A stretch of DNA of 32,788 bases from a phage, in NCBI GenBank assembly GCA_029942545.1, contig GCA_029942545.1_4114.3; one strand, given 5' to 3'. Both the position numbers and the translations under genes were made by a program. Of the stretch, positions 21,413 through 32,390 are shown piece by piece. The notes below the pieces were generated by a model. That model worked only from the letters and a program-made list of their open reading frames with translations, was not told the origin of the DNA and did no database searches. Position 1 is the first letter of the stretch. The number at the start of each line of letters is the position of its first letter.

Positions 21413-21420
21413 GGAATACT

Positions 21421-21600
21421 ATGCAACAATTCTATAGAGAACGTATAACCATAAAAGACCGTTTCATGTACGACACCTTCGTGAAGTACTACAAACTAGG
21501 AACAAAAAGTACTAAAAATATTAATCTCAATAGCTGCATTTATGCTGTACTAACACAAGATAATCCCTACAGGGAAATCCTCGCCCTGGCATCTATATAA
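21421..21600 (+). CDS. small protein (59 aa), probable paralog family member
   Basis: Not in ORF track (below 60 aa); hand-called ATG about 21421 after AAGGA SD, stop TAA about 21598-21600; fills the only gap in the array; starts MQQFYRERI. Confidence 0.5.
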   Translation: MQQFYRERITIKDRFMYDTFVKYYKLGTKSTKNINLNSCIYAVLTQDNPYREILALASI

Positions 21601-21610
21601 AGGAAACCAA

Positions 21611-22282
21611 ATGAAACTTAATGCACACAGCAAACAATACCTTAAGCACTTTAAGTACCTCAATAGTATTCAGGCAGAATCAGTTACATCTGCATATACG
21701 TATCACCCGAATGTACTAAAGAAACGAAATAAAAAGGAAAAATCCAGTACAAATGGAGTTAACGTATCAAAGAACCTTGAATTGTACATGAAGAAAAATA
21801 ATATAGCTGTTCATTATATGAATATCTATAATACTGATTTAAAAGTATTGAGTACTAATACGAGCACAAAGGTACTAAAGAACGCATCCTTCATCATCAA
21901 TATGCAGTTGGATAATACCCCGTGCACTTTAATGCTATACTTCGGGAATACATACTTCTTCGGGAATTGTAACACCTCCCACGATGTCAATACAGCACAA
22001 TTCCAAATGGGTGGCATATACTCTACTGATGCAGAAAAAGTACACGAGAATATGCACTTCTGGCAAGCACAACGTACAGAAGAAACTGATACAGTACTAC
22101 AATTCCTCAAAGAACTAGAACACAAAGAACTACAGGAAGAAGAACTATTCATGTACAGTACTGTAATCGATAATCCAGTACTCTATAAAAACGCGTACAA
22201 TCTGACAAAACATGTACAGGAACTTATCAGTACTAATAAGAAAATGCATCACCTCATTACGTATATTACAAACTATGTATAA
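21611..22282 (+). CDS. hypothetical protein (223 aa) embedded in the small-ORF array
   Basis: ORF track; AAGGAAACC SD-like; no family motifs. Confidence 0.7.
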   Translation: MKLNAHSKQYLKHFKYLNSIQAESVTSAYTYHPNVLKKRNKKEKSSTNGVNVSKNLELYMKKNNIAVHYMNIYNTDLKVLSTNTSTKVLKNASFIINMQLDNTPCTLMLYFGNTYFFGNCNTSHDVNTAQFQMGGIYSTDAEKVHENMHFWQAQRTEETDTVLQFLKELEHKELQEEELFMYSTVIDNPVLYKNAYNLTKHVQELISTNKKMHHLITYITNYV

Positions 22283-22457
22283 AGAATACTACAGGGAACA
22301 TCTCCCAATGCATCTCCAGCACCATATACCAACAGAACCAATAGGAATAAAAGATCACGCAAAGATAATGTTTCAACAATGTACTAAGTACACGCTCATA
22401 TACGATGATAATCCATATATGCTGTACTACGTAGTAATGTTAACATTCAGGTACTAA
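22275..22457 (+). CDS. small protein, paralog family member
   Basis: ORF track 22212..22457; start moved to internal ATG (MYKEYYREHLP) that matches family N-termini and overlaps the upstream stop. Confidence 0.7.
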   Translation: MYKEYYREHLPMHLQHHIPTEPIGIKDHAKIMFQQCTKYTLIYDDNPYMLYYVVMLTFRY

Positions 22458-22458
22458 C

Positions 22459-22644
22459 ATGTATAAAGAATACTACATAGAGAAACTCCCAATGTATCTC
22501 CAACACCTTGTACCAACAGAACCATTGGGTATAGAAAAAAACTACGAAAAAGACTACTTCATTCAGTGCACTAAATCCTCGATATATATTGAAGACTATA
22601 ATCGAGTACTGTATCACATCCTTTTACTAATATATAGGTACTAA
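22459..22644 (+). CDS. small protein, paralog family member
   Basis: ORF track; MYKEYYIEKLP ... LLLIYRY; 1-nt intergenic gap. Confidence 0.75.
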   Translation: MYKEYYIEKLPMYLQHLVPTEPLGIEKNYEKDYFIQCTKSSIYIEDYNRVLYHILLLIYRY

Positions 22645-22645
22645 T

Positions 22646-22828
22646 ATGCACAAAGAATACTACACACAATTTCTCCCCAGCATTTTTGAACACTACGCCA
22701 GATACAAAGTCCCCCTGGATAACGATTTGGCAGTACTGGGATTCAATAACTGCATAGAACGAAGTATAGAAAATAGTAGTAGTTATGACCAGCTATATAA
22801 CACTATCCTACTTATATTCAGGTACTAA
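22646..22828 (+). CDS. small protein, paralog family member
   Basis: ORF track; MHKEYYTQFLP ... ILLIFRY. Confidence 0.75.
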   Translation: MHKEYYTQFLPSIFEHYARYKVPLDNDLAVLGFNNCIERSIENSSSYDQLYNTILLIFRY

Positions 22829-22829
22829 C

Positions 22830-23018
22830 ATGCATAAAGAATACTACACAAAATATTTCCCAATGTACCTCAGAACTAATCTATTAGATAAACCTCGCGG
22901 TATCAATGCACAAAATGATAAAGTGTATTTTACTATGTGCACTAAAGCATGTATACTAGATTTTGACAGCTATCATCGAGTACTGTATCATACCCTGTAC
23001 CTAGCTTTCGTATTCTAA
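22830..23018 (+). CDS. small protein, paralog family member
   Basis: ORF track 22785..23018; start moved to ATG 22830 (MHKEYYTKYFP) matching family. Confidence 0.7.
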   Translation: MHKEYYTKYFPMYLRTNLLDKPRGINAQNDKVYFTMCTKACILDFDSYHRVLYHTLYLAFVF

Positions 23019-23027
23019 GAGAACAAT

Positions 23028-23213
23028 ATGCATAAAGAATTCTACTTAAGCCATCTGGATCTAAACTCCCAAATGCTTATACCACTAATCCCAATAGATA
23101 TCAAGGATAAGAAAAATACCGAACAATTCATTTACCATACACAGTGTGCGATCACCCCAAATTACATTCCATATGAATTGTACTACATTCTCGCCCTAAT
23201 ATATAGGTACTAA
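23028..23213 (+). CDS. small protein, paralog family member
   Basis: ORF track; MHKEFYLSHL ... LALIYRY. Confidence 0.75.
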   Translation: MHKEFYLSHLDLNSQMLIPLIPIDIKDKKNTEQFIYHTQCAITPNYIPYELYYILALIYRY

Positions 23214-23214
23214 T

Positions 23215-23400
23215 ATGCATAGAGAATACTACACACAATTTGTTAAAGGGAACTACAAACATGCCGTACCCAGAACCCCTTTAAATTCTCATGACCCAAG
23301 TACTATATTCTTGTTTAATGACGCAATACGTACAGTACTCAATACTAAAGATGAAGATGTGCAGTACGTATTCTTACTATTACTTATATACAGACACTAA
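23215..23400 (+). CDS. small protein, paralog family member
   Basis: ORF track; MHREYYTQFV ... LLLIYRH. Confidence 0.75.
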   Translation: MHREYYTQFVKGNYKHAVPRTPLNSHDPSTIFLFNDAIRTVLNTKDEDVQYVFLLLLIYRH

Positions 23401-23405
23401 CTAAT

Positions 23406-23588
23406 ATGAATAAAGAACATAAAGAATTCTATATAAGAAAACTAACATTCGTCCCCGTAAGAATATATAAAGAATGCGACCCAAGATTATACCTATGGCA
23501 CTTCAATGAGTGCATAAAAGATTCTATATACCCTAAGAACTATAAAGAACAATTGTGCTCAGTACTAACACTAGTACTATCATATTAA
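23406..23588 (+). CDS. small protein, paralog family member
   Basis: ORF track; MNKEHKEFYIRKL; central FNECIKDSIY. Confidence 0.7.
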   Translation: MNKEHKEFYIRKLTFVPVRIYKECDPRLYLWHFNECIKDSIYPKNYKEQLCSVLTLVLSY

Positions 23589-23603
23589 TTAATAGAGAAT
23601 ACT

Positions 23604-23795
23604 ATGTATAAAAACTTCTATATAAGTAAACTAAAAGAAAATGAACAAGTATGGATTAGATCTATAATTCCACTGGCATTTAATAGATATGCATTTAACA
23701 GATGTACCGAGATTGCTATAGACCCTTATAATATTAAAGAGAATGTACAGTATAATCAGTACTACTATATCTTAATGCTTATATATAGGAAGTAA
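23604..23795 (+). CDS. small protein, paralog family member (last of array)
   Basis: ORF track; MYKNFYISKL ... ILMLIYRK. Confidence 0.7.
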   Translation: MYKNFYISKLKENEQVWIRSIIPLAFNRYAFNRCTEIAIDPYNIKENVQYNQYYYILMLIYRK

Positions 23796-23909
23796 TTAAA
23801 CACAAGTAGACAGGGGAAGCTCCTAGTGAACAACCTTTATGTACAGGCGAATTGTTAAAATTCAGCCTGGACAAATGCGATCACTAGGATTCTCCCCAGG
23901 CTAAACCCC

Positions 23910-24000
23910 GTAATCATAGGTAGTCATAAGTAATCATATATAAACATTTAAGTAATCATTTATAATCACTGTAGTGATCAGTAGTGATCAGTAGTGAGTA
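23910..24000. repeat. direct repeats: GTAATCA-type heptamers and three tandem 10-bp units
   Basis: GTAATCAT occurs at least 3 times with a related TAATCAC, followed by AGTAGTGATC x3 in tandem (about 23970-24000). Confidence 0.6.
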
Positions 24001-24129
24001 CTAGAGTACAGGAATGTTCACGTTTAATCAAGAACGTAGCAGTACTGATATGTCACTAAGTAGGCAGAGGAAGTCTGCCGTACTTTTTAGTTTCCAAGCT
24101 CCTTTTCCATTTTTCAAATTACATCAAAT

Positions 24130-24164
24130 GTAATCAAAAGTAATCACGCAATGATTAGTACTGA
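24130..24164. repeat. GTAATCA repeats including an inverted pair
   Basis: GTAATCAAAAGTAATCACGCAATGATTAG: two direct copies plus inverted TAATCA/TGATTA around CGCAA. Confidence 0.55.
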
Positions 24165-24423
24165 ATTATTACTTTCACCTTAATTACAATTACCCTTTTA
24201 CCCGTCGGGGTAAAATTCCATTACCCCTTGAGGCTCCAGCAAAAAGTTGGTTAGTACTCCATCCTAAATCTCGATCCTAAAAATTTTGGAGTACCTATGA
24301 AATAAAAGTTGGATCTTCGAAAGTTGAAATTTACGTTGGGACGTTTATGATTTGTGGGATATAATGATGTTTGTAGACGGGTAGTTCTCAAGAATATCAG
24401 TACTGAATAATGAAAGAAAGTTA

Positions 24424-24451
24424 TTGACATTATGATTCAGTACTGTATAAT
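24424..24451 (+). promoter_or_regulatory. strong sigma70-like promoter in ORF-free region
   Basis: TTGACA (24424-24429), 16 nt containing CAGTACTG, TATAAT (24446-24451); no ORF of meaningful length downstream. Confidence 0.55.
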
Positions 24452-24457
24452 GTTCTA

Positions 24458-24656
24458 CATAGAGAGATGAGTTGCTGCCAACAATTCATTTACTCTACCT
24501 CCTGTCGTGAGACAGTACAGAAAAGATAGTTCCTCCTGTGGTGGTACATCTTTTTGAACCTCATATGAAAATCGTAATAACAGTACTGATATTAACAGAA
24601 TGGTGTCAGTACTGATTTTAATCTAAAGCATTATGCCACCAGCTTGTGCTGGTGGA
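24458..24656 (+). ncRNA. candidate small non-coding RNA (about 200 nt)
   Basis: Downstream of promoter 24424-24451; longest ORF about 20 aa; two CCTCCTGT(C/G)GTG copies (anti-SD-like CCUCCU); ends at 8-bp hairpin CCACCAGC-ttgt-GCTGGTGG (24636-24655) without a clear U-tract. Confidence 0.25.
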
Positions 24657-24796
24657 TTCCCTCTAACAGTATTCAGTACTACATGATAGTCTTCATCCTC
24701 CTAGGGTAACATAGTGAGGGCTATGATGGCAGTACTGAATACTCCTTTCACAAGATAGATCTATGGTATAGTACTGACGGATTTTGGGCGTAGTTA

Positions 24797-24968
24797 CCCT
24801 GGATGGATTTTGGACGTAGATATGTCTAGCCCTCCAGAAGTCTGGAAGTAAAGATGGCTATCCATCTAGACGGCTAGACGGCTAGATTTCTGGATGGCTG
24901 GATGGCTAGACGTTTGGACGGCTAAACGGCTAGATGGTTACACGTCTGGAAGTATAGACGGCTAAATC
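24797..24968. repeat. iteron-like array of short direct repeats
   Basis: Repeated 7-11 bp words: ACGGCTA(G/A)A x5, TGGATGG x3, TTGGACG x2, GTCTGGAAGTA x2, mostly in one orientation at roughly 9-11 bp spacing. Confidence 0.6.
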
Positions 24969-25130
24969 AAAATTTTATTTTGTTTTTTCCAATAGTTCCC
25001 CTACCGCGTGGGGATAGTTTCCCCGCAGTATCTGGAGTTAGATTTTTCTGAATCTGGAATCATTATCTTATAAACTGGGGGCAATGTCAACGGCCTGGAC
25101 GGATATTTTTAAAAATTTTTTCAGTACTGA

Positions 25131-25182
25131 ATTTTGGGCGTAACTATGCACCCGGTGGGCTTGAGTCTTTCTCGACTTGATG
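25131..25182 (+). repeat. ~50-nt repeated element, copy A
   Basis: ATTTTGGGCGTAACTATGCACCCGGTGGGCTTGAGTCTTTCTCGACTTGATG; shares ATTTTGGGCGTAA, GCACCC and CTTTCTCG..T.ATG blocks with copies at 25347 and 28955. Confidence 0.5.
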
Positions 25183-25245
25183 AAAATATTATAGCAGTAC
25201 TGAAAAAATAAAGCAATACCCTAAACGCAAAAAGTTTTAATTAAT

Positions 25246-25274
25246 TTGCTTGCCATCCTGGGGCGTACTATGAT
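25246..25274 (+). promoter_or_regulatory. possible promoter (TTGCTT -35-like, TATGAT -10)
   Basis: TTGCTT, 17 nt, TATGAT, upstream of repeated element copy B; weak match. Confidence 0.25.
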
Positions 25275-25346
25275 ACTATTATTCAGTACTGAGAAAGTGC
25301 TATGACCTGCTAAGGTGCGGGAGTGTATCCTTTTTAAATTATATGA

Positions 25347-25399
25347 ATTTTGGGCGTAATTCCGCACCCCCCAGGGGTATCCGCTTTCTCGCGTCTATG
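25347..25399 (+). repeat. ~50-nt repeated element, copy B
   Basis: ATTTTGGGCGTAATTCCGCACCCCCCAGGGGTATCCGCTTTCTCGCGTCTATG. Confidence 0.5.
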
Positions 25400-25657
25400 T
25401 AGTAATTATACGCTTTTTCGGTGCTGAGTCAATAGCTAAAAACAAAATAATTGAAAATAATTTAACGCGTTTAAACGGCCCGTAAAGCCCTGGTTAGCTG
25501 GTGGCGGTGCAAATGTATAGCTTAGGTGTATTAATGCGTTAGAAAGCGGCTGAGGCCGTTTTATGGGGTGTATAGTAGTGATTTGGTTGATTCAGTACTG
25601 AAAGATAGTTCCCCTATATAGAAAGAAAACTATTTTAAAAGTATTTGTAGAAAGTAC

Positions 25658-25720
25658 TTGCAAAGTATTGGGAAAGGTGTAGAATGTTTTACATCGAGAC
25701 GGGGGATACGCTCCCGACTC
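25658..25720 (+). promoter_or_regulatory. early-type promoter plus downstream stem-loop (PeSL-like)
   Basis: AGTACTTGCAA, 16 nt, TAGAAT, GTTTTACATC, then GGGGGATACGCTCCC hairpin; gene 25743 follows. Confidence 0.55.
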
Positions 25721-25742
25721 ACTTTTAAAAGAGATTAAAACG

Positions 25743-26105
25743 ATGGCGACTCAAATCAATACTATCATGCTTAACCTGGTTTCTTTCCGTGAAGAGATGA
25801 AAGATCTTCCCGCTGAGACTGTACGGATTCACATTGCAGCTTATCGGGAATTGATTGCAATGTTACCGCTTAAGCGTGAACAGTATGCAGCTACTGCAAT
25901 GCTGGACGCAATGATACATAAGATGATCCAGACTGATTTAACGATGGCTTATCAGTACATGGGCGAAATGTTTGCAGTGTATAGCAAGCCAGTACCAGGA
26001 ATGGAAAGTACAGAAGTATTGCACGGCTTAAACTTAAAACAAGATGCATGGGATAATATGCCTCGTTTCCTGGTATGGGCTGATAGTGGAAAGATTTACG
26101 AATAA
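25743..26105 (+). CDS. hypothetical protein (120 aa)
   Basis: ORF track; downstream of promoter/stem-loop; GC-richer codon choice. Confidence 0.7.
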   Translation: MATQINTIMLNLVSFREEMKDLPAETVRIHIAAYRELIAMLPLKREQYAATAMLDAMIHKMIQTDLTMAYQYMGEMFAVYSKPVPGMESTEVLHGLNLKQDAWDNMPRFLVWADSGKIYE

Positions 26106-26119
26106 GTTTAATAAAGTAC

Positions 26120-26178
26120 TTGCAAACTAAGTTTAAAAGCGTATAATGTTTTACATCAGGTGGGGAATAGTTCCCCAC
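26120..26178 (+). promoter_or_regulatory. early-type promoter plus stem-loop (PeSL-like)
   Basis: TTGCAA (26120-26125), 16 nt, TATAAT (26142-26147), GTTTTACATC, hairpin GTGGGGAATAGTTCCCCAC. Confidence 0.6.
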
Positions 26179-26198
26179 TATATAAGAGGATTAAAAAA

Positions 26199-26438
26199 AT
26201 GGCTAAATCAAAAATGTTCTTAGGTCACAAAAACAAAACTCAATGGAATGTAAGCCTTTGGATTAATAACGACGAATCATTATACCGGTTGGCCCAGGAC
26301 TTTATTGCCGCTAACACTAATCGTAATGATGCGGCCCGTCATATGATGCTATTTTTAGAACAGACTGGACAAGATAAAACACCGGACGGCTTTAAGTATA
26401 GCACTACTGCGATCCGTGCGGCGATGGTTGGAATGTAA
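26199..26438 (+). CDS. hypothetical protein (79 aa)
   Basis: ORF track 26160..26438; start moved to ATG 26199 (MAKSKMF) after AGAGGA SD; the longer ORF would begin inside the 5' stem-loop. Confidence 0.7.
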   Translation: MAKSKMFLGHKNKTQWNVSLWINNDESLYRLAQDFIAANTNRNDAARHMMLFLEQTGQDKTPDGFKYSTTAIRAAMVGM

Positions 26439-26459
26439 GAGAATAGATTAAAAGTACTA

Positions 26460-26484
26460 TTGCACGGTGATAGTACTTTATAAT
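26460..26484 (+). promoter_or_regulatory. possible promoter
   Basis: AGTACTATTGCAC ... TTTATAAT upstream of gene 26521; spacer about 13 nt for TTGCAC, so register is uncertain. Confidence 0.3.
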
Positions 26485-26520
26485 AGATTTCTTTTATACA
26501 ACAACGATAGGGGTAACAGC

Positions 26521-26787
26521 ATGAATATTATATACTTTGCAACGCGTGAACTTGCTCGGATTGCCGCACGCCAGGACGGGGCGACGTTTAAAGATATGGG
26601 CGTACAATCTGAACGTGGTAAACGTTGGGCCGTAGTAAAGCAAAGTACAGCCCGATCAATTCAGTACTGGCTATCTGCTTTAAAGCGTCCTGATAGTGTA
26701 TCGCGTCGCGTGGTAGAAATAAAGCACGACCGCAAGGGCAACCGCGTTACAGTGTACAGTACTAAAAAGATTGCAGTACTTGAATAA
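26521..26787 (+). CDS. hypothetical protein (88 aa), basic
   Basis: ORF track 26467..26787 (GTG start); start moved to ATG 26521 (MNIIYFATREL) after AGGGGT SD. Confidence 0.65.
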   Translation: MNIIYFATRELARIAARQDGATFKDMGVQSERGKRWAVVKQSTARSIQYWLSALKRPDSVSRRVVEIKHDRKGNRVTVYSTKKIAVLE

Positions 26788-26908
26788 AAGTACTTGACCG
26801 TTATCCGGCTTAGTGAGATAATACTTACAAGCCGGACACAAGGCGATAGCCCATAGGGTGCGGGAGTGTATCTATAGGAAAGTACTAAAAACTATTTTCA
26901 AAAAGTAC

Positions 26909-26936
26909 TTGCAAACTATGTTTAAAGGCGTATAAT
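26909..26936 (+). promoter_or_regulatory. early-type promoter
   Basis: TTGCAA, 16 nt, TATAAT, GTTTTACATC; followed by a ~90-nt leader with a 9-codon mini-ORF (MKNSPDKIV). Confidence 0.55.
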
Positions 26937-27026
26937 GTTTTACATCAGGACGGGGAATGAAATAAGTAACTCCCTGTTAAGTAGTCCAGGAGTAAGACGT
27001 ATGAAAAACTCCCCTGATAAAATAGT

Positions 27027-27054
27027 TTGACAATAGAAAGTAAAAGCGTATAAT
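27027..27054 (+). promoter_or_regulatory. early-type promoter
   Basis: TTGACA (27027-27032), 16 nt, TATAAT (27049-27054), ACTTACATC. Confidence 0.6.
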
Positions 27055-27086
27055 ACTTACATCAACTAATGAATGAGGGTTACAAA

Positions 27087-27698
27087 ATGAAAACTATCAC
27101 TACTACTACTTTTGTTATGGCTTTTTCTGAACTGAACGCAGAACAACAAACGGCGGCTATCGAACTGGTTCGGGATCGGGAACGTGCAAGTGAGGATAAT
27201 TTCTTTGCTGAATCAGTACTGGAATACTATAAAGAAACAGTACTACCAGAATACGGCATAGATGAAGCTGAATTGCAATACAGTGGTTTTTGGTCGCAAG
27301 GTGACGGTGCATCAATCAGTACTGACCACGTTGACGCTGAGAAGTTTTTACGCAAGGTTAAGGCGTTAACGAAATATCGTTCCATCCGTCACCTGTTGAA
27401 CGAAGATGATTTGGAAATGAGTGTAGAACGTTCCCAATCGCGTTATGCACACGAAAACACGGTAGGCGGTTGCGTTGATACTCGCTACACTGATTTAACT
27501 GTAAAACAGGCTGCATTAGCTGAGGATCTGGAAAACTTACTGACTGATACTATCCGAGAATTATCTTGTAAGCTGTACCGTGATTTAGAAAATGCTTATG
27601 AAGACCAGTTTACTACTGAAAACATTGTAGCACTGATCGAGGGTAACGAATATCAATTTAACGTTATCGACGATGTAGTAGAATCTATCGCATATTAA
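27087..27698 (+). CDS. hypothetical protein (203 aa), acidic
   Basis: ORF track 27069..27698; start moved to ATG 27087 (MKTITTT) after GAGGGT SD; the 27069 ATG has no SD. Confidence 0.7.
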   Translation: MKTITTTTFVMAFSELNAEQQTAAIELVRDRERASEDNFFAESVLEYYKETVLPEYGIDEAELQYSGFWSQGDGASISTDHVDAEKFLRKVKALTKYRSIRHLLNEDDLEMSVERSQSRYAHENTVGGCVDTRYTDLTVKQAALAEDLENLLTDTIRELSCKLYRDLENAYEDQFTTENIVALIEGNEYQFNVIDDVVESIAY

Positions 27699-27715
27699 TT
27701 CAGTACTGAATCAAT

Positions 27716-27735
27716 GGCGGGGAATGGTTCCCGCC
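27716..27735 (+). promoter_or_regulatory. solo stem-loop of the PeSL type (no promoter)
   Basis: GGCGGGGAATGGTTCCCGCC between genes 27087 and 27757, preceded by TTCAGTACTGAA palindrome. Confidence 0.5.
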
Positions 27736-27756
27736 TATATCCCAGGAGTAAGAGAA

Positions 27757-27993
27757 ATGATCGAACAAATCAAAACTACAACACCAAACGTAACGGGTAC
27801 AGTATCACACTTCATTGGTGACGATTCGCGGGGCGTTCCCTATTGTGCGGTACATGTAAACCAAAATGGCGACTACTGGCTAACGGTTTACGGTTCTTAT
27901 TCTTTCGGGCGTAGTGCACACCAAAAGATCCTGGATAAAGTACAACCAACGGGTAAAAATATCACCGCTGAGATGTTTTATAAAAAGCACTAA
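27757..27993 (+). CDS. hypothetical protein (78 aa)
   Basis: ORF track 27724..27993; start moved to ATG 27757 (MIEQIKTT) after AGGAG SD; the longer ORF would start inside the stem-loop. Confidence 0.65.
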   Translation: MIEQIKTTTPNVTGTVSHFIGDDSRGVPYCAVHVNQNGDYWLTVYGSYSFGRSAHQKILDKVQPTGKNITAEMFYKKH

Positions 27994-28000
27994 AAAGTAC

Positions 28001-28059
28001 TTGCAAAGTAATTAGATTAACGTATAATACTTTATATCGAGAGCGGGAATAGTTCCCGC
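28001..28059 (+). promoter_or_regulatory. early-type promoter plus stem-loop (PeSL-like)
   Basis: TTGCAA (28001-28006), 16 nt, TATAAT (28023-28028), hairpin GCGGGAATAGTTCCCGC. Confidence 0.6.
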
Positions 28060-28078
28060 CTTTACTGAGGATTATCTA

Positions 28079-28363
28079 ATGAGTAAAGTAATAAAGTACA
28101 ATGTGTTAAGCAAGTCATTGTCTATAAGTGAGTGCACCGATGGTTTTTGGCTGTACGATGAAACGCGTGGCATGAATTTAGCTATGCAGGAGAAAACTAC
28201 TGATGCGGCATATCTTAAAGCACTGGAATACTACCAGAAGCGTTTAAAGGAAGTAGAAAACGATTATAATAACCTGAAAGCGAAAGTAGATCATTTCATC
28301 GGGCAAGTGGTAGAAGATGACGAGGACGGGCACTACTGCGACCGTTGCGGATCTTACAATTGA
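28079..28363 (+). CDS. hypothetical protein (94 aa) with C-terminal CxxC
   Basis: ORF track; TGAGGA SD; C-terminus HYCDRCGSYN. Confidence 0.7.
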   Translation: MSKVIKYNVLSKSLSISECTDGFWLYDETRGMNLAMQEKTTDAAYLKALEYYQKRLKEVENDYNNLKAKVDHFIGQVVEDDEDGHYCDRCGSYN

Positions 28364-28380
28364 GTACTGAGGATTATCTA

Positions 28381-28584
28381 ATGAGTGATTTAATTAAACG
28401 TATCAAAGAGCTTGAAGAAAAAGAATTGCAGTTGATCGGGTTACGGAATAAAGTATTCCATGATTTAGGTGGCTTCATTAATGCCTGGGATAGTGGCGAT
28501 CCTGATGCGTTACCTGCTAACCGCCAGGCGATGATCAATGATGTGCGTGGTGTCTTTGATTATGTTTTAAAGCAATTAAATTAA
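28381..28584 (+). CDS. hypothetical protein (67 aa)
   Basis: ORF track 28345..28584; start moved to ATG 28381 (MSDLIKRIKEL); its 5' leader CTGAGGATTATCTAATGAGT duplicates that of gene 28079. Confidence 0.65.
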   Translation: MSDLIKRIKELEEKELQLIGLRNKVFHDLGGFINAWDSGDPDALPANRQAMINDVRGVFDYVLKQLN

Positions 28585-28592
28585 AAAAGTAC

Positions 28593-28652
28593 TTGCAATT
28601 AGTTTCCAGTACTGTATAATAGTTTACATCAAGGGGAGAAATGGTTCTCCCC
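28593..28652 (+). promoter_or_regulatory. early-type promoter plus stem-loop (PeSL-like)
   Basis: TTGCAA (28593-28598), 16 nt containing CAGTACTG, TATAAT (28615-28620), hairpin GGGGAGAAATGGTTCTCCCC. Confidence 0.6.
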
Positions 28653-28671
28653 ACTAATAAGGAGTTTTACA

Positions 28672-28893
28672 ATGGCTAATATCACTACTCTTTCCCAGCT
28701 TGAAGCACTGGTTAAATCTATGCGGGCACATGCTGACAATATTGGCGTAGAAGATCCCGCAGTATGTTTTTGCGACGAAATAAATGATGATACGCTCGTC
28801 ATTGCAGAAGTGCAAGACGTTTCTAACTATTCATCGCGTTACACTGGCGGCGTAGCAAAGAAAGGTGATTTTTGTTTATATCTTACTAAGTAA
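28672..28893 (+). CDS. hypothetical protein (73 aa)
   Basis: ORF track; AAGGAG SD; followed by terminator. Confidence 0.7.
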   Translation: MANITTLSQLEALVKSMRAHADNIGVEDPAVCFCDEINDDTLVIAEVQDVSNYSSRYTGGVAKKGDFCLYLTK

Positions 28894-28897
28894 TACA

Positions 28898-28926
28898 GAG
28901 GGGATCAAACGATCCCCTTTATTTTG
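28898..28926 (+). terminator. intrinsic terminator
   Basis: AGGGGATC-aaac-GATCCCCT stem then TTTATTTT. Confidence 0.7.
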
Positions 28927-28954
28927 CAGTACTGAATCATTTAATAGACGGATC

Positions 28955-28992
28955 TATGCACCCTGTGGGTTAGTGACTATCTCGTCTTTATG
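28955..28992 (+). repeat. ~50-nt repeated element, copy D (3' blocks only)
   Basis: TATGCACCCTGTGGGTTAGTGACTATCTCGTCTTTATG, located between terminator 28898-28926 and promoter 29061. Confidence 0.4.
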
Positions 28993-29060
28993 TAAGTATT
29001 ATGCCAGTACTGGATGCAGTTGTCAAGACTTTTTTTTCAAATACTTTTATATTAAAGTAC

Positions 29061-29117
29061 TTGATAATAGTTTTTAAATGCGTATAATGTTTTACATCTA
29101 ATCGGGAATACTCCCTA
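29061..29117 (+). promoter_or_regulatory. early-type promoter with weak downstream hairpin
   Basis: TTGATA, 16 nt, TATAAT (29083-29088), GTTTTACATC, GGGAATACTCCC. Confidence 0.5.
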
Positions 29118-29138
29118 GTACTAACAAAGGATATACAA

Positions 29139-29438
29139 ATGAAAACTGCAATCATCGCCCTGGCTTTATCTGTTTCCTCTTTCGCTGTTAACGCTTCCGT
29201 TGATGTACCGAAAGAAAAATTCATTCAGTGCACTGTTGCAATGACTAACGAGGAAACGGCTGAGATCGTTACCAAATCCCTGGAACTGGCCCCTGCAATG
29301 TTTGCTAATGGCCCGTACCATGAAGAAGATGATCAGGGTAGCACGACCATCTATTACGATGCAAAAAGTAAACGCGGTTCTGTCACTGTAATGGATACAG
29401 AGAAAGTTACATTCACTGGCGTAATTAATTGTTTATAA
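29139..29438 (+). CDS. small secreted/periplasmic protein (Sec-type signal peptide)
   Basis: ORF track; N-terminus MKTAIIALALSVSSFAVNA then SVD: basic n-region, hydrophobic core, AxA-type cleavage site; AAAGGA SD. Confidence 0.75.
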   Translation: MKTAIIALALSVSSFAVNASVDVPKEKFIQCTVAMTNEETAEIVTKSLELAPAMFANGPYHEEDDQGSTTIYYDAKSKRGSVTVMDTEKVTFTGVINCL

Positions 29439-29454
29439 TATAGTACTGAATCAC

Positions 29455-29487
29455 TAGCCCACTTATACAGTGGGCTTTTTTGTTTTT
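29455..29487 (+). terminator. intrinsic terminator
   Basis: AGCCCACT-tataca-GTGGGCT then TTTTTTGTTTTTG; preceded by TAGTACTGAATCACT. Confidence 0.75.
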
Positions 29488-29535
29488 GTAGTATCGTAGT
29501 ACTGGTATACTTTGAAAATAGTTTTAAAAAAGTAG

Positions 29536-29563
29536 TTGACATTACCAGGGAAAAGCGTAGAAT
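29536..29563 (+). promoter_or_regulatory. early-type promoter
   Basis: TTGACA (29536-29541), 16 nt, TAGAAT, GTATTACATC; followed by ~100-nt leader with mini-ORF MKNWTRQTNFDKLT. Confidence 0.55.
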
Positions 29564-29677
29564 GTATTACATCAAGACGGGGAACATTAAGTAGACCGCC
29601 AGTAAGTCGAATGAAAAACTGGACACGTCAAACAAACTTTGATAAACTAACTTAAACTTTAATTGAGGATTTATAAA

Positions 29678-30160
29678 ATGGCTAATGTAAAATCATTTCT
29701 GAAAGCACTGATTTCTAACGATACTGTTATTGCTGCTGAATTGCTGGCTGACCTGGATAATGATACCATGAAAGCAGTACGCAACAATTTTAACATTGCT
29801 TACAGTGAAGCGAAAGAACTACAAGCCAAAAAGGTAGCAGAACTGGAAGAACAGAAAAAAGCCCGTGAAGCAGAACTGCAAGCAACAATAGAAAGTATTC
29901 AGGCGGCGGTGTCTGGTTTAGATCTGGAAGTGGTTATTGAAATGGCTCATAAAGCCCTGGCGGTTAAGTACGGTGAAGATAAGCCGGAATCTAAGCCTAA
30001 AAAATGGATTCAAGAACGTGTTACTGTTGTCCTTGATAACGGGGAAGAACATTTGATTCCTGTACGCGGTAACTGCATTGCGGTAGTACTGGATGCTATT
30101 AAAGAAAGCGGTATGACTCGCGAGGAATGGATCGAAGCTCACCGCAAAATTGAAGCATAA
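29678..30160 (+). CDS. hypothetical protein (160 aa), Ala/Glu/Lys-rich, helical
   Basis: ORF track 29663..30160; start moved to ATG 29678 (MANVKSF) after GAGGAT SD. Confidence 0.7.
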   Translation: MANVKSFLKALISNDTVIAAELLADLDNDTMKAVRNNFNIAYSEAKELQAKKVAELEEQKKAREAELQATIESIQAAVSGLDLEVVIEMAHKALAVKYGEDKPESKPKKWIQERVTVVLDNGEEHLIPVRGNCIAVVLDAIKESGMTREEWIEAHRKIEA

Positions 30161-30180
30161 CAATTAAAGTACTGAATCAC

Positions 30181-30208
30181 TAGCCCACTGTATAAGTGGG
30201 CTTTTTTG
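30181..30208 (+). terminator. intrinsic terminator (near-duplicate of 29455-29487)
   Basis: AGCCCACT-gtataa-GTGGGCT then TTTTTTGTG; same TACTGAATCACTAGCCCACT context. Confidence 0.75.
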
Positions 30209-30361
30209 TGTCTATAGTATTCCAGTCCACTAGCACCGCCTAGAATCGATTCTAACGCATTAAACTGATTATCTGATGCATCGCCCTAGCTGGTGGCGTT
30301 AAGGTCGTTAGAATGCGATTGAGAGCGTTTAAAGTATTTTGCAAAAAGTAATAAAAAGTAC

Positions 30362-30389
30362 TTGCACGATTAAGAGAAAGGCGTATAAT
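30362..30389 (+). promoter_or_regulatory. early-type promoter
   Basis: TTGCAC, 16 nt, TATAAT (30384-30389), TAGTTACATC. Confidence 0.5.
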
Positions 30390-30434
30390 TAGTTACATCA
30401 AGGCAAGACACCTTAACTAACTGAGGATTTAAAG

Positions 30435-30575
30435 ATGAATACTTATGAACTGGATTGTTTCACTATGCAAGTAATGTTAGTATGCAGTAAAAAAGAATGG
30501 TCATCAAAGGAATTTAAAGCAGTTATTGCATGTTCAAAAAAAGGTAAGTCTATTATTGAAACGGCAGCTATCGTA
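30435..30575 (+). CDS. possible small protein (about 46 aa)
   Basis: Not in ORF track; hand-called ATG about 30435 after TGAGGA SD downstream of promoter 30362; end coordinate approximate. Confidence 0.35.
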
Positions 30576-30595
30576 GATAGTCTTTAAAAAAATAG

Positions 30596-30623
30596 TTTGA
30601 CAATAGTTTTAAGTACTGTATAA
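30596..30623 (+). promoter_or_regulatory. early-type promoter
   Basis: TTGACA (30596-30601), 16 nt containing AGTACTG, TATAAT (30618-30623), ATTTTACATC. Confidence 0.6.
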
Positions 30624-30658
30624 TATTTTACATCAACTACTGAGAAGGAATCAAAACA

Positions 30659-30886
30659 ATGGCTATCATCATCACTTACGTATCTGGCACTACTGGCACT
30701 TCTAGCACTGTTGCAGTACTGACCAACAAGAAAGGTGCGGAACTTCATTCTGCAATGAATACCTGGGCGGTGAATGAGTTCGGTCAGTGGGCTAGTGTAG
30801 AATACATTGAAACCTATCAAGTGCCGTCTATTAGCTTAACTGATTTAGGTGTAGATCGTATCCTTTGCCTGGATGAATTAAATTAA
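30659..30886 (+). CDS. hypothetical protein (75 aa)
   Basis: ORF track; GAAGGA SD. Confidence 0.7.
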   Translation: MAIIITYVSGTTGTSSTVAVLTNKKGAELHSAMNTWAVNEFGQWASVEYIETYQVPSISLTDLGVDRILCLDELN

Positions 30887-30895
30887 AAAAAGTAC

Positions 30896-30953
30896 TTGCA
30901 AAGTAAATCAGATAAAGTATAATACATTACATCAAGGGGAGAATAGTTCTCCC
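30896..30953 (+). promoter_or_regulatory. early-type promoter plus stem-loop (PeSL-like)
   Basis: TTGCAA (30896-30901), 16 nt, TATAAT (30918-30923), hairpin GGGGAGAATAGTTCTCCCC. Confidence 0.6.
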
Positions 30954-30972
30954 CCACTAAAAGGAAACTAAA

Positions 30973-31116
30973 ATGAAAACTTGTCAATGTGGTAAAAAAT
31001 CTATTACTGGTTTGAAGCGGGGCGTTGCCCTCTGTCAGTATCACTATAACGCTCAAGTATGGGGTAAAGAGTGGGCTGACCAGGTTGAAGCAGCAAAGAA
31101 AGCAAAAAGTAAGTAA
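30973..31116 (+). CDS. possible small Cys-rich protein (47 aa)
   Basis: Not in ORF track; ATG about 30973 after AAAGGAAAC downstream of promoter/stem-loop; MKTCQCGKK...ALCQYHY has a CxC...C..H.H pattern. Confidence 0.5.
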   Translation: MKTCQCGKKSITGLKRGVALCQYHYNAQVWGKEWADQVEAAKKAKSK

Positions 31117-31135
31117 AATTATTATCACAGTACTA

Positions 31136-31164
31136 TTGACATAGTTTGATAGTACTGGCATAAT
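31136..31164 (+). promoter_or_regulatory. sigma70-like promoter
   Basis: TTGACA (31136-31141), 17 nt containing AGTACTGG, CATAAT (31159-31164). Confidence 0.5.
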
Positions 31165-31197
31165 AGATTTTATCAAGACAACTAAGAGGAAATTAAA

Positions 31198-31542
31198 ATG
31201 GCTAACATCAACACTATCTCAGCACAAAATATCAACCTGTCTTCTGTTGAAGTTGTACATATTGCCGCTCGGCGTTGGTTCCAGGCTTCATATGGTAACA
31301 CTTATTTCTCTTTAAGTGTAGACGTAGAAATTGATGGTAATTTTATTGAAGTAGTAAACGTGCCGTTCCAATATGGATACGGGGATCACTTTGACACGGT
31401 AGCAATGGAAGAATTTAGCAAGGTTATTAATATGGAAGGTAAAGAGTTTTTACGCGGTTCTTATCTTTCTCGTTTTTGCCGTGACAATAATATCACTGTT
31501 TACAGTTCGGTAACTGATGTTAAACGCAAAAAAGATCTTTAA
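31198..31542 (+). CDS. hypothetical protein (114 aa)
   Basis: ORF track; AGAGGA SD. Confidence 0.7.
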   Translation: MANINTISAQNINLSSVEVVHIAARRWFQASYGNTYFSLSVDVEIDGNFIEVVNVPFQYGYGDHFDTVAMEEFSKVINMEGKEFLRGSYLSRFCRDNNITVYSSVTDVKRKKDL

Positions 31543-31622
31543 TTAGCTTTACTTTATGCAGATACTTTGATATAGTGTCTGCATAGGGGAAAGAAATTAA
31601 ATCAAATTAAGAGGATAGTATA

Positions 31623-31892
31623 ATGAAAAATATCAGTACTTTAATCGATGCAGGTACTCATGTTCGTCGGTCTATGGTTGCAACCAGTACTACAAAACAA
31701 GTAGCAAGCGGTTATCTTGTATTTGTACACGAAGGAAAGCTATTGGAACGTTCAATCAATTTTGATGTTAAAAACAATTGCCGTTTTATTATTTTTAAGC
31801 GTGAACAATATAAAATTGATTTACCAGCAAAGCCCATTAGCGGGGCGTACAACGTGCAATCATTGTTTGAGCGTCAACCATACACCTATTAA
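31623..31892 (+). CDS. hypothetical protein (89 aa)
   Basis: ORF track; AGAGGA SD; upstream inverted repeat ATGCAGA-N15-TCTGCAT. Confidence 0.7.
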   Translation: MKNISTLIDAGTHVRRSMVATSTTKQVASGYLVFVHEGKLLERSINFDVKNNCRFIIFKREQYKIDLPAKPISGAYNVQSLFERQPYTY

Positions 31893-31943
31893 TCAAAACA
31901 TCGTTAGCGGTCGATTTAGGCCGCTTATATTGGGGATTATACC

Positions 31944-32114
31944 ATGAACGTTAATCAAGTACTGAATGAAGTTGAAAGCATCATTAAACCAATGAAACGT
32001 ATTGATGCTGTTCCTACACCGGAAGAATGCCGCCTTTATGAGCGTTACAGTGTGGAACAAGCCCAGGAAATGGCCCGTATCCGTCCGGTTGCCAGTACTG
32101 ATAAGGCGGCGTAA
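31944..32114 (+). CDS. possible small protein (56 aa)
   Basis: Not in ORF track; ATG about 31944 (MNVNQVLNEV...), stop TAA about 32112-32114, 1 nt before the next ATG; GC-rich codons (CCG, GCG, CGT) like neighbouring genes. Confidence 0.45.
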   Translation: MNVNQVLNEVESIIKPMKRIDAVPTPEECRLYERYSVEQAQEMARIRPVASTDKAA

Positions 32115-32115
32115 T

Positions 32116-32322
32116 ATGCTTACTGTACAGGATAAGATCGACATCTTAAAGGTTAATATGTATGTGATTGATGCAGATCCTGAAAAAGTATTTGCATACG
32201 ATGATTCTAATCGTAGTCCTTTTTATTGTAGTCATGTAGTTGGATACGTGCCGTTAGCGTATGTTATCGAAAGAGTGGTTGATTCAGCTTATAAACATTA
32301 CTTAGAAAGTACTTGCAATTAG
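32116..32322 (+). CDS. hypothetical protein (68 aa)
   Basis: ORF track 32002..32322; start moved to ATG 32116 (MLTVQDKIDIL) directly after the stop of the upstream small ORF. Confidence 0.6.
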   Translation: MLTVQDKIDILKVNMYVIDADPEKVFAYDDSNRSPFYCSHVVGYVPLAYVIERVVDSAYKHYLESTCN

Positions 32323-32370
32323 TTTTTAGTACTGTATAATTGTTTACATCGAGAGCGGGAATAGTTCCCG
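32313..32370 (+). promoter_or_regulatory. early-type promoter plus stem-loop (PeSL-like)
   Basis: TTGCAA (32313-32318), 16 nt containing TAGTACTG, TATAAT (32335-32340), hairpin GCGGGAATAGTTCCCGC identical to the one at 28043. Confidence 0.6.
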
Positions 32371-32390
32371 CCTATAACGAGGAAAGAATA

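Follow-up and report, generated by a model that had tools for sequence, protein, structure and literature searches.

The promoter cluster A1-A2-A3 of bacteriophage T7 is known from textbooks and serves as a standard template for in vitro transcription. The put RNAs of phage HK022 are cis-acting elements of about 70 nt, folded into two adjacent stem-loops, which bring about factor-independent antitermination. In the PeSL (promoter-early stem-loop) cassettes of T4-type phages, the stem-loop is described as terminating or attenuating transcription that arrives from upstream (Arbiol et al. 2010, PMC2839356; Comeau et al. 2014, PMC4122927). The window analysed here, a stretch of 32,788 nucleotides, belongs to a 121Q-like jumbo phage (Asteriusvirus) and shows 97.6% identity to phage 121Q, its closest relative. 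Its early region resembles PeSL regions in the strong sigma70-like early promoters with A/T-rich upstream sequence, coupled with a GGGG...CCCC-type stem-loop, in the repetition of such cassettes before small ORFan genes of a hyperplastic region, and in the insertions, deletions and swaps between relatives, which fall at the cassettes. However, the window phage is not a T4-type phage, its hairpins are located downstream of the promoter in the 5'UTR, about 10-15 nt past the -10 element, and most of them have no U-run. Moreover, in the two leaders studied here a conserved linker and a second hairpin are added, both of which the ordinary cassettes lack.

The two leaders and their early-gene array

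Over 25.6-32.8 kb of the window, about 15 strong early promoters of sigma70-like type, each preceded by A/T-rich sequence, are predicted by match to the sigma70 -35/-10 consensus, and the genes behind them belong to PHROGs of unknown function. Both leaders belong to this array, which is part of the direct terminal repeat: phage vB_Ec-M-J, in whose record a repeat is annotated as 1-21525, has its position 1 at window position 24059. The window phage has three copies of the module per terminal repeat, two of which are within the window. The early region is a mosaic of promoter-plus-hairpin cassettes in which insertions and deletions are frequent (121Q genes 269/270, for example, are missing from the window), and the same leader is found ahead of at least five different genes, with junctions within promoter elements. 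The features of both leaders are collected in Table 1.

Table 1. Predicted features of the two leaders (window coordinates).
Feature	Position	Strand	Remarks
Leader 1, promoter P1	26909..26936	+	TTGCAA-N16-TATAAT; 10/12 consensus positions
Leader 1, A-rich stretch upstream in P1	given with P1	+	AAAAAGTAC
Leader 1, RNA module	26944..27018	+	three-helix fold; RNAfold MFE and centroid agree
Leader 1, closing helix	26944-26949 with 27013-27018	+	AUCAGG with CCUGAU (RNAfold)
Leader 1, hairpin 1	26950-26956 with 26971-26977	+	ACGGGGA/UCCCUGU; adjoins the 5' side of the linker
Leader 1, linker	26978-26988	+	UAAGUAGUCCA
Leader 1, hairpin 2	26989-26993 with 27008-27012	+	GGAGU with ACUCC (RNAfold)
Mini-ORF 1	27001..27030	+	MKNSPDKIV and stop, 9 codons; read as incidental
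Leader 1, tandem promoter P2	27027..27054	+	TTGACA-N16-TATAAT; 12/12 consensus positions
Gene after leader-1 P2	27087-27698	+	PHROG 5162 (unknown function)
Leader 2, promoter P1	29536..29563	+	TTGACA-N16-TAGAAT; 11/12 consensus positions
Leader 2, RNA module	29571..29629	+	short form without hairpin 1
Leader 2, possible closing helix	29576-29579 with 29626-29629	+	GACG with CGUC; only 4 bp
Leader 2, linker	29587-29598	+	UUAAGUAGACCG
Leader 2, hairpin 2	29599-29603 with 29618-29622	+	CCAGU with ACUGG
Mini-ORF 2	29611..29655	+	MKNWTRQTNFDKLT and stop, 14 codons; read as incidental
Leader 2, remaining 5'UTR	29630..29677	+	ribosome-binding region ACUUUAAUUGAGGA
Gene after leader 2	29678-30160	+	PHROG 27871

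The initial annotation had described two promoters without an immediate gene, each followed by a related leader carrying a short MKN ORF, and these observations were confirmed. Both promoters are present; leader 1 leads to a second promoter and then to a gene, and leader 2 to a long 5'UTR and a gene. Only two sites in the window fit the shared pattern TTAAGTAGNCCNGNAGTAAGNCGNATGAAAAACT, 26977-27010 without a mismatch and 29587-29620 with one; dinucleotide-preserving shuffles gave an expectation of 0.00 matches. The two mini-ORFs, of the lengths given in that annotation, also exist. The span 26937-29660 to which it referred takes in both leaders together with the four genes between them.

The P1 of leader 1 is 98-100% conserved in six relatives, and transcription would start from it at about 26942-26944. 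The TGA of mini-ORF 1 overlaps the -35 of P2 (27027-27032), and a short unstructured 5'UTR separates P2 from its gene. The 5'UTR that follows the module of leader 2 holds, in alignment with the P2 of other copies, the remnant of a decayed second promoter (TTGATA, no -10). The short form of leader 2 is also present in Erwinia phage Hallingskeid, and the centroid fold of the leader-2 orthologue in phage G17 shows the GACG/CGUC helix together with hairpin 2.

RNA fold, covariation and the T7 A1-A2 segment

The conserved fold consists of hairpin 1, a single-stranded linker of the form (U)UAAGUAG-N-C-N-G, hairpin 2 and, often, a closing helix. From the constant position downstream of a promoter, it appears that the RNA is made from the + strand. 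Hairpin 2 is an interrupted stem, with a covarying lower helix of 4-5 bp, a conserved purine-rich internal loop (5' UAAG, 3' AAAAA) and a C-NNNN-G cap in which the C-G pair is invariant and the tetraloop varies freely. The lower stem occurs as GGAG/CUCC, GGUG/CACC, CCAG/CUGG and CCUG/CAGG. Among 22 close copies, both-side changes were found in 3/5 pairs and 95.5% of cells were paired; with 20 sequences representing every lineage, pairing was intact in 80/80 cells of the four-pair core (CG/GC, CG/GC, AU/UA and one invariant GC). The covariation score of hairpin 2 was 0.50, whereas shuffles gave 0.17 and slid controls did not exceed 0.15; the hairpin was also recovered independently by RNAalifold. 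Hairpin 1 adjoins UAAGUAG in 77 of the 91 copies, against 33% of shuffles, and is built from at least 20 different stem sequences. The closing helix also differs by lineage (AUCAGG/CCUGAU, GACG/CGUC, GCGGC/GUCGC, AUCAGGAC/GUCUUGAU and CCGAAGC/GGUUUCGG). The folding z-scores of single sequences were modest, from -0.2 to -3.0.

A covariance model of the motif (R1) matched T7 at nt ~550-592, between promoters A1 and A2, with 56.9 bits. The window copies reached 55.7 bits (26977-27018) and 55.8 bits (29587-29628), scores that are partly by construction, as both were in the seed alignment; T7-like copies outside the seed scored 49-59 bits. The model gave 37 matches of 39.7-59.4 bits in 622 kb, all of them expected elements, and the best unrelated match was 16.7 bits. 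The T7 core was matched by BLAST in 491 phage records. The T7 sequence was read directly, and the promoter positions were taken from the T7 record (A1 +1 at 498, A2 +1 at 626). Both window leaders contain the core of the family, the UAAGUAG linker and a hairpin 2 with UAAG / C-NNNN-G / GAA(A/C)AA. In the T7 record nothing is annotated over this segment and no function is named for it, Rfam has no family for it, and the literature searched yielded no paper on the element. An element present in T7 and in hundreds of other enterobacterial phages has apparently never been described before.

The sequence of the module is also constrained. Divergence amounts to 0.10 in leader 1 and 0.055 in the core of leader 2, compared with 0.20-0.45 at the third codon positions of flanking genes, and the leader evolves about three times more slowly than the third codon positions of the adjacent gene. 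The linker and the internal loop are nearly invariant from T7 to the jumbo phages, while the flanks are unrelated. In 121Q-like phages, in Justusliebigvirus and in phage A7_1 (promoters TTGACA/TAAGAT at the module), the same core is flanked by different promoters and followed by different genes. In three different phage backgrounds, the limits of the module agree with where the transcript starts and the fold ends rather than with the promoters. This slow divergence, together with a structure kept across phage families, speaks against the null expectation attached to the initial annotation, namely that the leaders are simple tandem-promoter spacers. The reading that the two leaders represent a structured element which is conserved, non-coding and a homologue of the A1-A2 segment of T7, the mini-ORFs being incidental, is very probably correct; homology, covariation, sequence constraint, the lack of a conserved ORF and the lack of a terminator are all directly supported here.

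Alternative explanations and the MKN mini-ORFs

The initial annotation had also suggested a small RNA. The conserved, covarying folded RNA is in agreement with this suggestion, but a terminator of its own is absent from either leader: no terminator-like site was found in 26937-27087 or in 29564-29678. The module therefore forms the 5' portion of a longer transcript and is not an independent sRNA of the classical type. A weak Trp_leader match at 29411-29483 corresponds in fact to the terminator of the upstream gene. A related explanation, which is considered unlikely, is that a trans-acting regulatory or decoy RNA is cut from the transcript and acts as a sponge for a host protein or as an anti-defence RNA; in T7 the leader is released by RNase III at R0.3. 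Such a role would fit an element which is transcribed from the strongest and earliest promoters, adjoins anti-defence genes such as T7 gene 0.3, fills a 'gene' position between two promoters, has been exchanged horizontally between unrelated phages with common hosts and carries recurrent purine-rich AGUA(A/G) motifs in its single-stranded parts. The absence of an intrinsic terminator or U-tail argues against it, as do the lack of any complement of at least 10 nt on the + strand of the window, except for one 11-nt chance match, and the lack of a BLAST match to the element in E. coli genomes. Moreover, no processing site is known in the jumbo phages.

Conservation could also act on double-stranded DNA, with the element serving as an UP-like, activating or protein-binding site for A2 or P2, or as an operator. 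The motif of T7-like phages adjoins the -35 of A2 with its 3' end, which is only 2-5 bp away, its A5 tract sits at the expected position of a proximal UP subsite, and a promoter nearly always follows the element. The A-tract could thus double as an UP element, and part of the sequence conservation in T7-like phages may be at the DNA level. As an explanation of the whole module, however, a DNA site is rather improbable. The distance to the next -35 changes from 2-5 bp in T7 and its relatives, through 14 bp in leader 1 and ~20 bp in Kayfunavirus, to ~50 bp in phages of the Munch, RaK2 and Hallingskeid types, and leader 2 is followed by no promoter at all. It is pairing and not sequence that is preserved, in the four stems of hairpin 2 and the many stems of hairpin 1, and substitutions that keep pairing are typical of a folded single strand but not of a duplex recognised by a protein. 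For a cruciform, the stems would also have to be longer and the loops shorter.

Alternatively, the leaders may be neutral relics, either decayed gene starts, as the initial annotation had proposed, or filler left between two promoter cassettes by recombination and deletion, which would persist because the flanking conserved promoters serve as recombination sites in PeSL-style shuffling. The mosaic nature of the region and the absence of 121Q genes 269/270 are consistent with such an origin, leader 1 is laid out as a normal cassette (promoter, hairpin, SD-like sequence and ATG position), and gene conversion can homogenise multi-copy elements and lower their apparent divergence. The decayed gene start was at first the favoured reading, on account of the 5' arm of the leader-1 hairpin, GGAG, 8 nt ahead of the ATG. 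In T7-like, RaK2-like and Munch-like phages, however, the same helix is CCUG or CCAG and the triplet is ACG. Relics would also hardly show independent compensatory changes in two helices in several phage families, nor the near-invariant linker and loop, the coincident module boundaries and the slow divergence described above. This explanation has little probability.

A last alternative is that the mini-ORFs are translated, as a leader peptide whose translation would control read-through into the next gene or as a micropeptide acting by itself. Both window ORFs start with MKN, and that of leader 1 has AGGAG 8 nt ahead of its ATG. However, in 91 distinct homologous contexts the 'start' triplet is ACG in 76, ATG in 11, AAG in 3 and GTG in 1, so that a start codon is missing in 80 of the 91 copies. 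At the locus of leader 1 it is ACG in 121Q, G17, PBECO4, UB, Turkey5 and SD-2_S15. The ATG of leader 2 is confined to the window and 121Q, with ACG in G17, PBECO4, CMSTMSU, SD-2_S15, UB, Turkey5 and three metagenome contigs, and leader 2 has CCAG in place of a Shine-Dalgarno sequence. The peptides of the ATG copies (MKNRY, MNIWC, MKNSPDKIV and others) are unrelated beyond MK/MN, that is, after residue 2-3, and the ORFs range from 5 to at least 19 codons. The ATG is formed by tetraloop nucleotides 3-4 and the closing G of hairpin 2, and the AAA-AAC by its conserved internal loop. RNAfold gave a single dominant fold, neither leader contains a terminator with a mutually exclusive antiterminator fold, and no Rfam leader family, or any other Rfam entry, matches either leader (gathering score, or E up to 5). 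On the basis of these sequence comparisons, the MKN mini-ORFs are accidental by-products and not peptide-coding, and a leader-peptide attenuator, also put forward in the initial annotation, is close to refuted.

Possible role and comparison with known systems

In the preferred reading, a single conserved, structured and non-coding RNA module is present as a copy in each leader, at the 5' ends of transcripts that would start at a strong early promoter of the host RNA polymerase (sigma70), with a second tandem promoter normally following the module, as in T7. The RNA would fold co-transcriptionally and act in cis on its own transcript or on the polymerase. In several lineages the closing helix would form a three-way junction and bury the 5' end, and the module may seal the 5' end of the transcript against 5'-end-dependent decay. 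The conserved loop and linker may be presented to a factor common to all the hosts (Enterobacterales), either a host RNA-binding protein or RNA polymerase itself; a factor of the hosts is proposed because the module-bearing phages share little else. The complete statement, a structured non-coding module, homologous in T7 and acting as a cis-acting 5' leader with a host factor, is given a probability of roughly 0.6. The specific cis-acting, host-factor mechanism, taken separately, is tentative. It is possible, though doubtful, that the module is a hitherto unrecognised functional RNA of the immediate-early phase, shared horizontally by T7-like podoviruses, RaK2/121Q-like jumbo myoviruses and Stephanstirmvirinae, which binds a conserved host component. 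Its partner would be RNA polymerase, bound much as by put, or else a protein involved in RNA binding or defence, and the effect would be to condition the earliest of all transcripts or to disarm the host. If this were true, the A1-A3 region of T7, the most-studied early control region of a phage, would hide a structured RNA with a specific partner. T7 strains without parts of the A1-A2 region are reportedly viable in the laboratory, so any function of the module is likely accessory.

The clean covariation of the helices and their recurrence in jumbo phages otherwise unlike T7 make the A1-A2 'spacer' a candidate functional RNA, directly accessible to T7 genetics. For annotation, the MKN ORFs are to be regarded as artefacts, as are the short 'hypothetical proteins' that some records place over the element. 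The element also documents the exchange of an early regulatory module between very different phages of the same hosts.

Summarizing the comparison with known systems, the trp, his and leu leader attenuators likewise have a short ORF in a promoter-proximal leader, but the window leaders are without a conserved start, regulatory codons or a terminator/antiterminator pair. Hfq-type sRNAs differ from the module in their Rho-independent terminator with a U-tail. With the put RNAs the module shares a nascent RNA of ~70 nt with two adjacent stem-loops downstream of an early promoter of the host polymerase, a structural resemblance that offers an analogy of mechanism without a claim of membership; terminator read-through, in contrast to put, is not evident for the module. 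The closest counterpart is the T7 A1-A2 segment (NC_001604 nt ~535-592), a homologue with counterparts in T3-like phages, Kayfunavirus and other Autographiviridae. In T7-like phages no clear closing helix is seen and an rrn-type boxA is located further downstream, whereas the window has none; T7 has one copy, which would be carried by A1 transcripts only. The tandem arrangement is complete in leader 1, with P1 and P2, and reduced to P1 in leader 2, whose P2 has decayed. The hairpin adjoining the linker is found in T7 and leader 1 and not in leader 2, and the stem of hairpin 2 is CCUG/CAGG in T7, GGAG/CUCC in leader 1 and CCAG/CUGG in leader 2. Common to T7 and the window are the UAAGUAG linker, the architecture of hairpin 2, the loop UAAGUC-NNNN-GAAAAA and the position on the sense strand, where the element follows the first early host promoter at a distance of tens of nucleotides and comes just ahead of the tandem promoter.

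The two leaders and their predicted RNA fold

The initial annotation described two promoters with no immediate gene, each followed by a related leader with a short reading frame starting MKN, and all of these features were confirmed. No gene directly follows either promoter, and the pattern of the shared leader occurs exactly twice in the 32.8 kb, against 0.00 expected occurrences. Both leaders can be aligned unambiguously with their orthologues in phages 121Q and G17. Leader 1 is followed by a second tandem promoter and then by a gene, and leader 2 forms the first part of a 5'UTR of about 108 nt. The ribosome-binding region of the gene after leader 2 is closely similar to the leader of T7 gene 10, which includes the 'epsilon' enhancer (UUAACUUUAAGAAGGAGA).

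Coordinates of the features (in the window unless another sequence is named)
Feature	Position	Detail
First promoter of leader 1	26909-26936	consensus 10/12
Leader 1, RNA module	26944-27018	
Mini-ORF of leader 1	27001-27030	MKNSPDKIV
Second promoter of leader 1	27027-27054	perfect consensus
Gene after leader 1	27087	
Promoter of leader 2	29536-29563	consensus 11/12
Leader 2, RNA module	29571-29629	
Mini-ORF of leader 2	29611-29655	MKNWTRQTNFDKLT
Ribosome-binding region	29645-29680	AACUUAAACUUUAAUUGAGGAUUUAUAAAAUG
Gene after leader 2	29678	
Terminator of upstream gene	29411-29483	AGCCCACTTATACAGTGGGCTTTTTTG
Early-gene array	25650-32788 (+)	small genes
T7-A1-like transcript start	32346	ACATCGAGAGCGGGA
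Region with no ORF of at least 60 aa	23795-25743	about 2 kb
Iteron-like repeats	~24840-24970	GGCTAGAC/GGATGGCT
Iteron-like repeats	~23900-24000	GTAATCAT and AGTAGTGATC
Deletion relative to 121Q	26787-26909; 121Q stretch (L001) 1590-2150	~450 bp
Repeated non-coding element	26840-26880, 28950-29015, 25100-25440 (-); L001 1900-2150	GCCCAYAGGGTGCGGGAGTGTATCTATAG, and GCACCCKGTGGGTTAG...TATTATGCCAGTAC
Minus-strand promoters	25432, 25216	
Paralogous genes	5674-19906 (-)	ten, ~380-400 aa each
Consecutive ORFs	19991-23795 (+)	about 20, 59-77 aa
T7 copy of the core	T7 (NC_001604) ~550-597	gaTAAGTAGACAGCCTGATAAGTCGCACGAAAAACAGGtaTTGACA
boxA, T7	nt 814-825 (L058 415-426)	GCTCTTTAACAA
boxA, LIMEzero	L059 ~523-535	GCTCTTTATACAA
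boxA, GAP227	L061 ~354-365	GCTCTTTAACAA
boxA, E. coli rrnH leader	L066 279-290	identical to phage boxA

RNAfold was used to predict the structure, and the copies of the leader 1 type gave one dominant fold. It comprises a closing helix from the inferred transcription start (AUCAGG/CCUGAU), hairpin 1 (ACGGGG(A)/(U)CCCCGU), an 11-nt linker with UAAGUAG at its 5' end, and hairpin 2 (GGAGU/ACUCC) with a 14-nt loop. In 22 close copies, three of the five pairs of hairpin 2 show changes on both sides, 95.5% of the cells are paired, and the stem varies to GGUGU/ACACC in one EJP2 copy and to CCAGU/ACUGG in all copies of leader 2; the same hairpin was chosen unprompted by RNAalifold. In a set of 20 representative sequences, all 80 cells of the four core pairs are paired, in four versions (GGAG/CUCC, GGUG/CACC, CCAG/CUGG and CCUG/CAGG). 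Their covariation score is 0.50; shuffles reach 0.17 and slid controls no more than 0.15. Above the stem lie a conserved internal loop (5' UAAG, 3' AAAAA or AACAA), an invariant C-G pair and a freely varying tetraloop in 13 versions.

Hairpin 1 adjoins the linker in 77 of 91 copies, compared with 33% of shuffles, and is built from at least 20 different stems, such as CCGG/CCGG, UCCAG/CUGGA, GCCAC/GUGGU, GCCGGG/CCCGGU, GCCUGG/CCAGGU, GGGA/UCCC and ACGGGG/CCCCGU; in the comparison of strands, G.U extends 15 stems and A.C extends 21. The predicted closing helix has a lineage-specific sequence, with GACG/CGUC in the leader 2 type and GCGGC/GUCGC in phages Munch and RaK2 beside that of leader 1, and it is also predicted in a 44-kb IMG/VR phage (AUCAGGAC/GUCUUGAU) and in LIMEzero. 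The conserved object is a covarying non-coding RNA fold. Moreover, the leaders change slowly. Compared with six relatives, the window differs at 0.10 of the sites in leader 1 and at 0.055 in the conserved part of leader 2, whereas the third codon positions of flanking genes are 0.20, 0.34 and 0.40-0.45 divergent.

Distribution of the motif among phages

The core of the module extends from the transcript start to shortly before the -35 element of the next promoter. Every Asteriusvirus genome has it at a third locus as well, EJP2 has it at two more, and Justusliebigvirus and related coliphages of about 140 kb carry a single copy. The core precedes at least five different genes, and the promoters around it have unrelated spacers; phage A7_1 has promoters of another flavour (TTGACA...TAAGAT) on both sides. 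As the surrounding genes and promoters differ, the conserved unit is the RNA and not the promoter pair.

A relaxed pattern scan of IMG/VR revealed a copy in a 366-kb contig, and BLAST with this copy led to Salmonella phage Munch and its relatives, Klebsiella phages RaK2, K64-1 and Muenster, Erwinia phage Hallingskeid and the T7-like Pantoea phage LIMEzero. In T7 itself the copy, read directly, is located between the annotated E. coli promoters A1 (+1 at 498) and A2 (+1 at 626). The T7 core matched 491 phage records and is found in 53 T7-like IMG/VR contigs, in most of them some 500-650 nt into the contig. The linker and hairpin 2 were turned into a covariance model, which was run against 622 kb of sequence, about 240 kb of it from unrelated viral contigs. 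The search returned 37 matches of 39.7-59.4 bits, all on expected elements, with the next best at 16.7 bits; exactly two fell in the window, whose copies belonged to the seed alignment. In all cases the module is on the sense strand, 10-55 nt 3' of a host-type early promoter, and in most cases another promoter comes next. It is carried by podoviruses, jumbo myoviruses and myoviruses of about 145 kb.

In T7, LIMEzero and GAP227, an rrn-type boxA followed by TCTGG is located 3' of the motif and the tandem promoters. In the window boxA is not in excess, with 36 matches at up to three mismatches versus 40 expected.

Proposed role of the module and competing explanations

The module would be a cis-acting RNA that affects the earliest transcripts. 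Its near-invariant single-stranded parts (UAAGUAG and UAAG/AAAAA) most plausibly contact a host component, since the carriers share little beyond Enterobacterales hosts and an early reliance on host RNA polymerase. The simplest role would be that of a 5' domain which buries the 5' end of the transcript and recruits a protective or processivity factor. Alternatively, the module may exert a put-like effect on RNA polymerase, or it may serve as a decoy after its release; in T7, RNase III acting at R0.3 would presumably cut the leader off. A search of the window for a target in trans gave no meaningful complement to the loop or the linker. A role at the DNA level alone, with the module serving as upstream element of the second promoter, agrees with the geometry in T7, but it fits neither the variable spacing outside T7 nor the substitutions, which preserve pairing.

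The mini-ORFs had suggested a leader-peptide attenuator. This reading is not supported, because neither the start triplet nor the peptides are conserved, no terminator-like site is present in either leader, and neither matches an Rfam leader family. The triplet of leader 1 is ACG in 121Q, the closest relative, and G17 has ACG in both leaders; in 37 copies from 17 sources ATG occurs only in leader 1 of the window, one EJP2 copy and leader 2 of the window and 121Q. In the whole family (91 distinct contexts) ACG is found in 76, ATG in 11, AAG in 3 and GTG in 1, and the ORFs of ATG-bearing copies, of 5 to at least 19 codons, are unrelated past MK/MN. The 'ATG' consists of nt 3-4 of the hairpin 2 tetraloop and the closing G, and the triplet therefore toggles between ACG, AUG and AAG; the following 'AAA AAC' is the internal loop, which is why the accidental ORFs start MKN. 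Short 'hypothetical proteins' are annotated over the element in several genomes (OR699181-OR699188, PV611058, PQ390715 and others), and these are probably over-calls, as the element contains no conserved ORF. A weak Rfam Trp_leader match upstream of leader 2 (26.2 bits, gathering score 41, E 0.031) was rejected as an attenuator, being the intrinsic terminator of the upstream gene.

A decayed gene start was favoured at first, given the SD-like GGAG, the well-spaced ATG and the normal cassette layout of leader 1, and was abandoned because the homologues in T7-like, RaK2-like and Munch-like phages have CCWG stems and ACG. Host mimicry was rejected, as a search of 5,426 E. coli genomes gave no match to the leader and the strict pattern had no copy in 185,579 bacterial genomes; a partial resemblance of the T7 loop (GUCGCACGAAAAA) to the rrnH leader (GUCGCAAGACGAAAAA) was treated as chance, since it is located on the variable tetraloop of the family. 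The module has no match in Rfam. Of the RfaH ops, sigma-dependent pause, k-turn and sarcin-ricin motifs, none fitted well when compared by eye, and none is claimed.

The early-gene array and known promoter cassettes

The window derives from a jumbo coliphage of the 121Q/PBECO4 type (Asteriusvirus), and its segment 26700-29900 is 97.6% identical to 121Q and 82-87% to about 20 further members of the genus. Pfam and PHROGs assign the array genes only to families of unknown function, so they give no functional clue. About 15 near-identical early cassettes are present, with one upstream of almost every array gene. Each comprises an A-rich stretch with a sigma70-type promoter (AAAAAGTAC-TTGCAA-N16-TATAAT), the initial transcribed sequence ACATC(A/G)AG, a GC-rich hairpin (e.g. 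GGGGAGAA..UUCUCCCC or GCGGGAAUAGUUCCCGC), and a Shine-Dalgarno sequence with ATG. In a second class (AAAATAGTTTGACAAT...TATAAT) the 5' hairpin is often missing, and one initial transcribed sequence is similar to the T7 A1 start ATCGAGAGGGACACGG. In the intergenic DNA of 24000-32788, gene ends and promoter spacers are very rich in the palindrome (C)AGTACTG(A) (CAGTACTGTATAAT).

The record of phage vB_Ec-M-J has a direct terminal repeat at 1-21525. Its position 1 aligns to window position 24059, and the whole early array therefore lies within the terminal repeat, with leader 1 about 2.9 kb and leader 2 about 5.5 kb from the left genome end. The ORF-poor region spans this boundary, and the iteron-like repeats in this region may be terminus, packaging or origin signals. 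The GCCCAYAGGGTGCGGGAGTGTATCTATAG element lies, in 121Q, between convergent sigma70-like promoters at the annotated 'gp270', and the minus-strand promoters of the window point into similar sequences; it may represent an antisense or small-RNA pair. The 121Q genes 269 and 270 are missing from the window, and this deletion, edged by promoter-cassette sequences, illustrates cassette-mediated gene loss. Outside the array, the ten consecutive paralogous minus-strand genes and the short plus-strand ORFs both resemble tandem gene families; for two of the former, the PBECO4 counterpart carries the annotation 'regulator of chromosome condensation RCC1'. The search for tRNA and tmRNA genes was negative.

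Summarizing, both leaders belong to the T7 A1-A2 motif family, as defined in this analysis, leader 1 in the full form and leader 2 in a short form without hairpin 1, and they lead to a widespread early-leader RNA motif common to T7 and apparently unannotated. The searchable literature (Asteriusvirus transcription, phAPEC6, T7 leader, boxA and the literal sequence) yielded no description of the element, which older papers on the T7 left end may mention. In T4-type phages, PeSL cassettes place strong early promoters with GGGG/CCCC stem-loops before ORFans and mark the boundaries of insertions, deletions and swaps (PMC2839356, PMC4122927). The array of the window resembles them in its combination of early promoter, GGGG/CCCC stem-loop and ORFan, and in marking such boundaries; unlike in the PeSL cassettes, however, its stem-loop is located 3' of the promoter.
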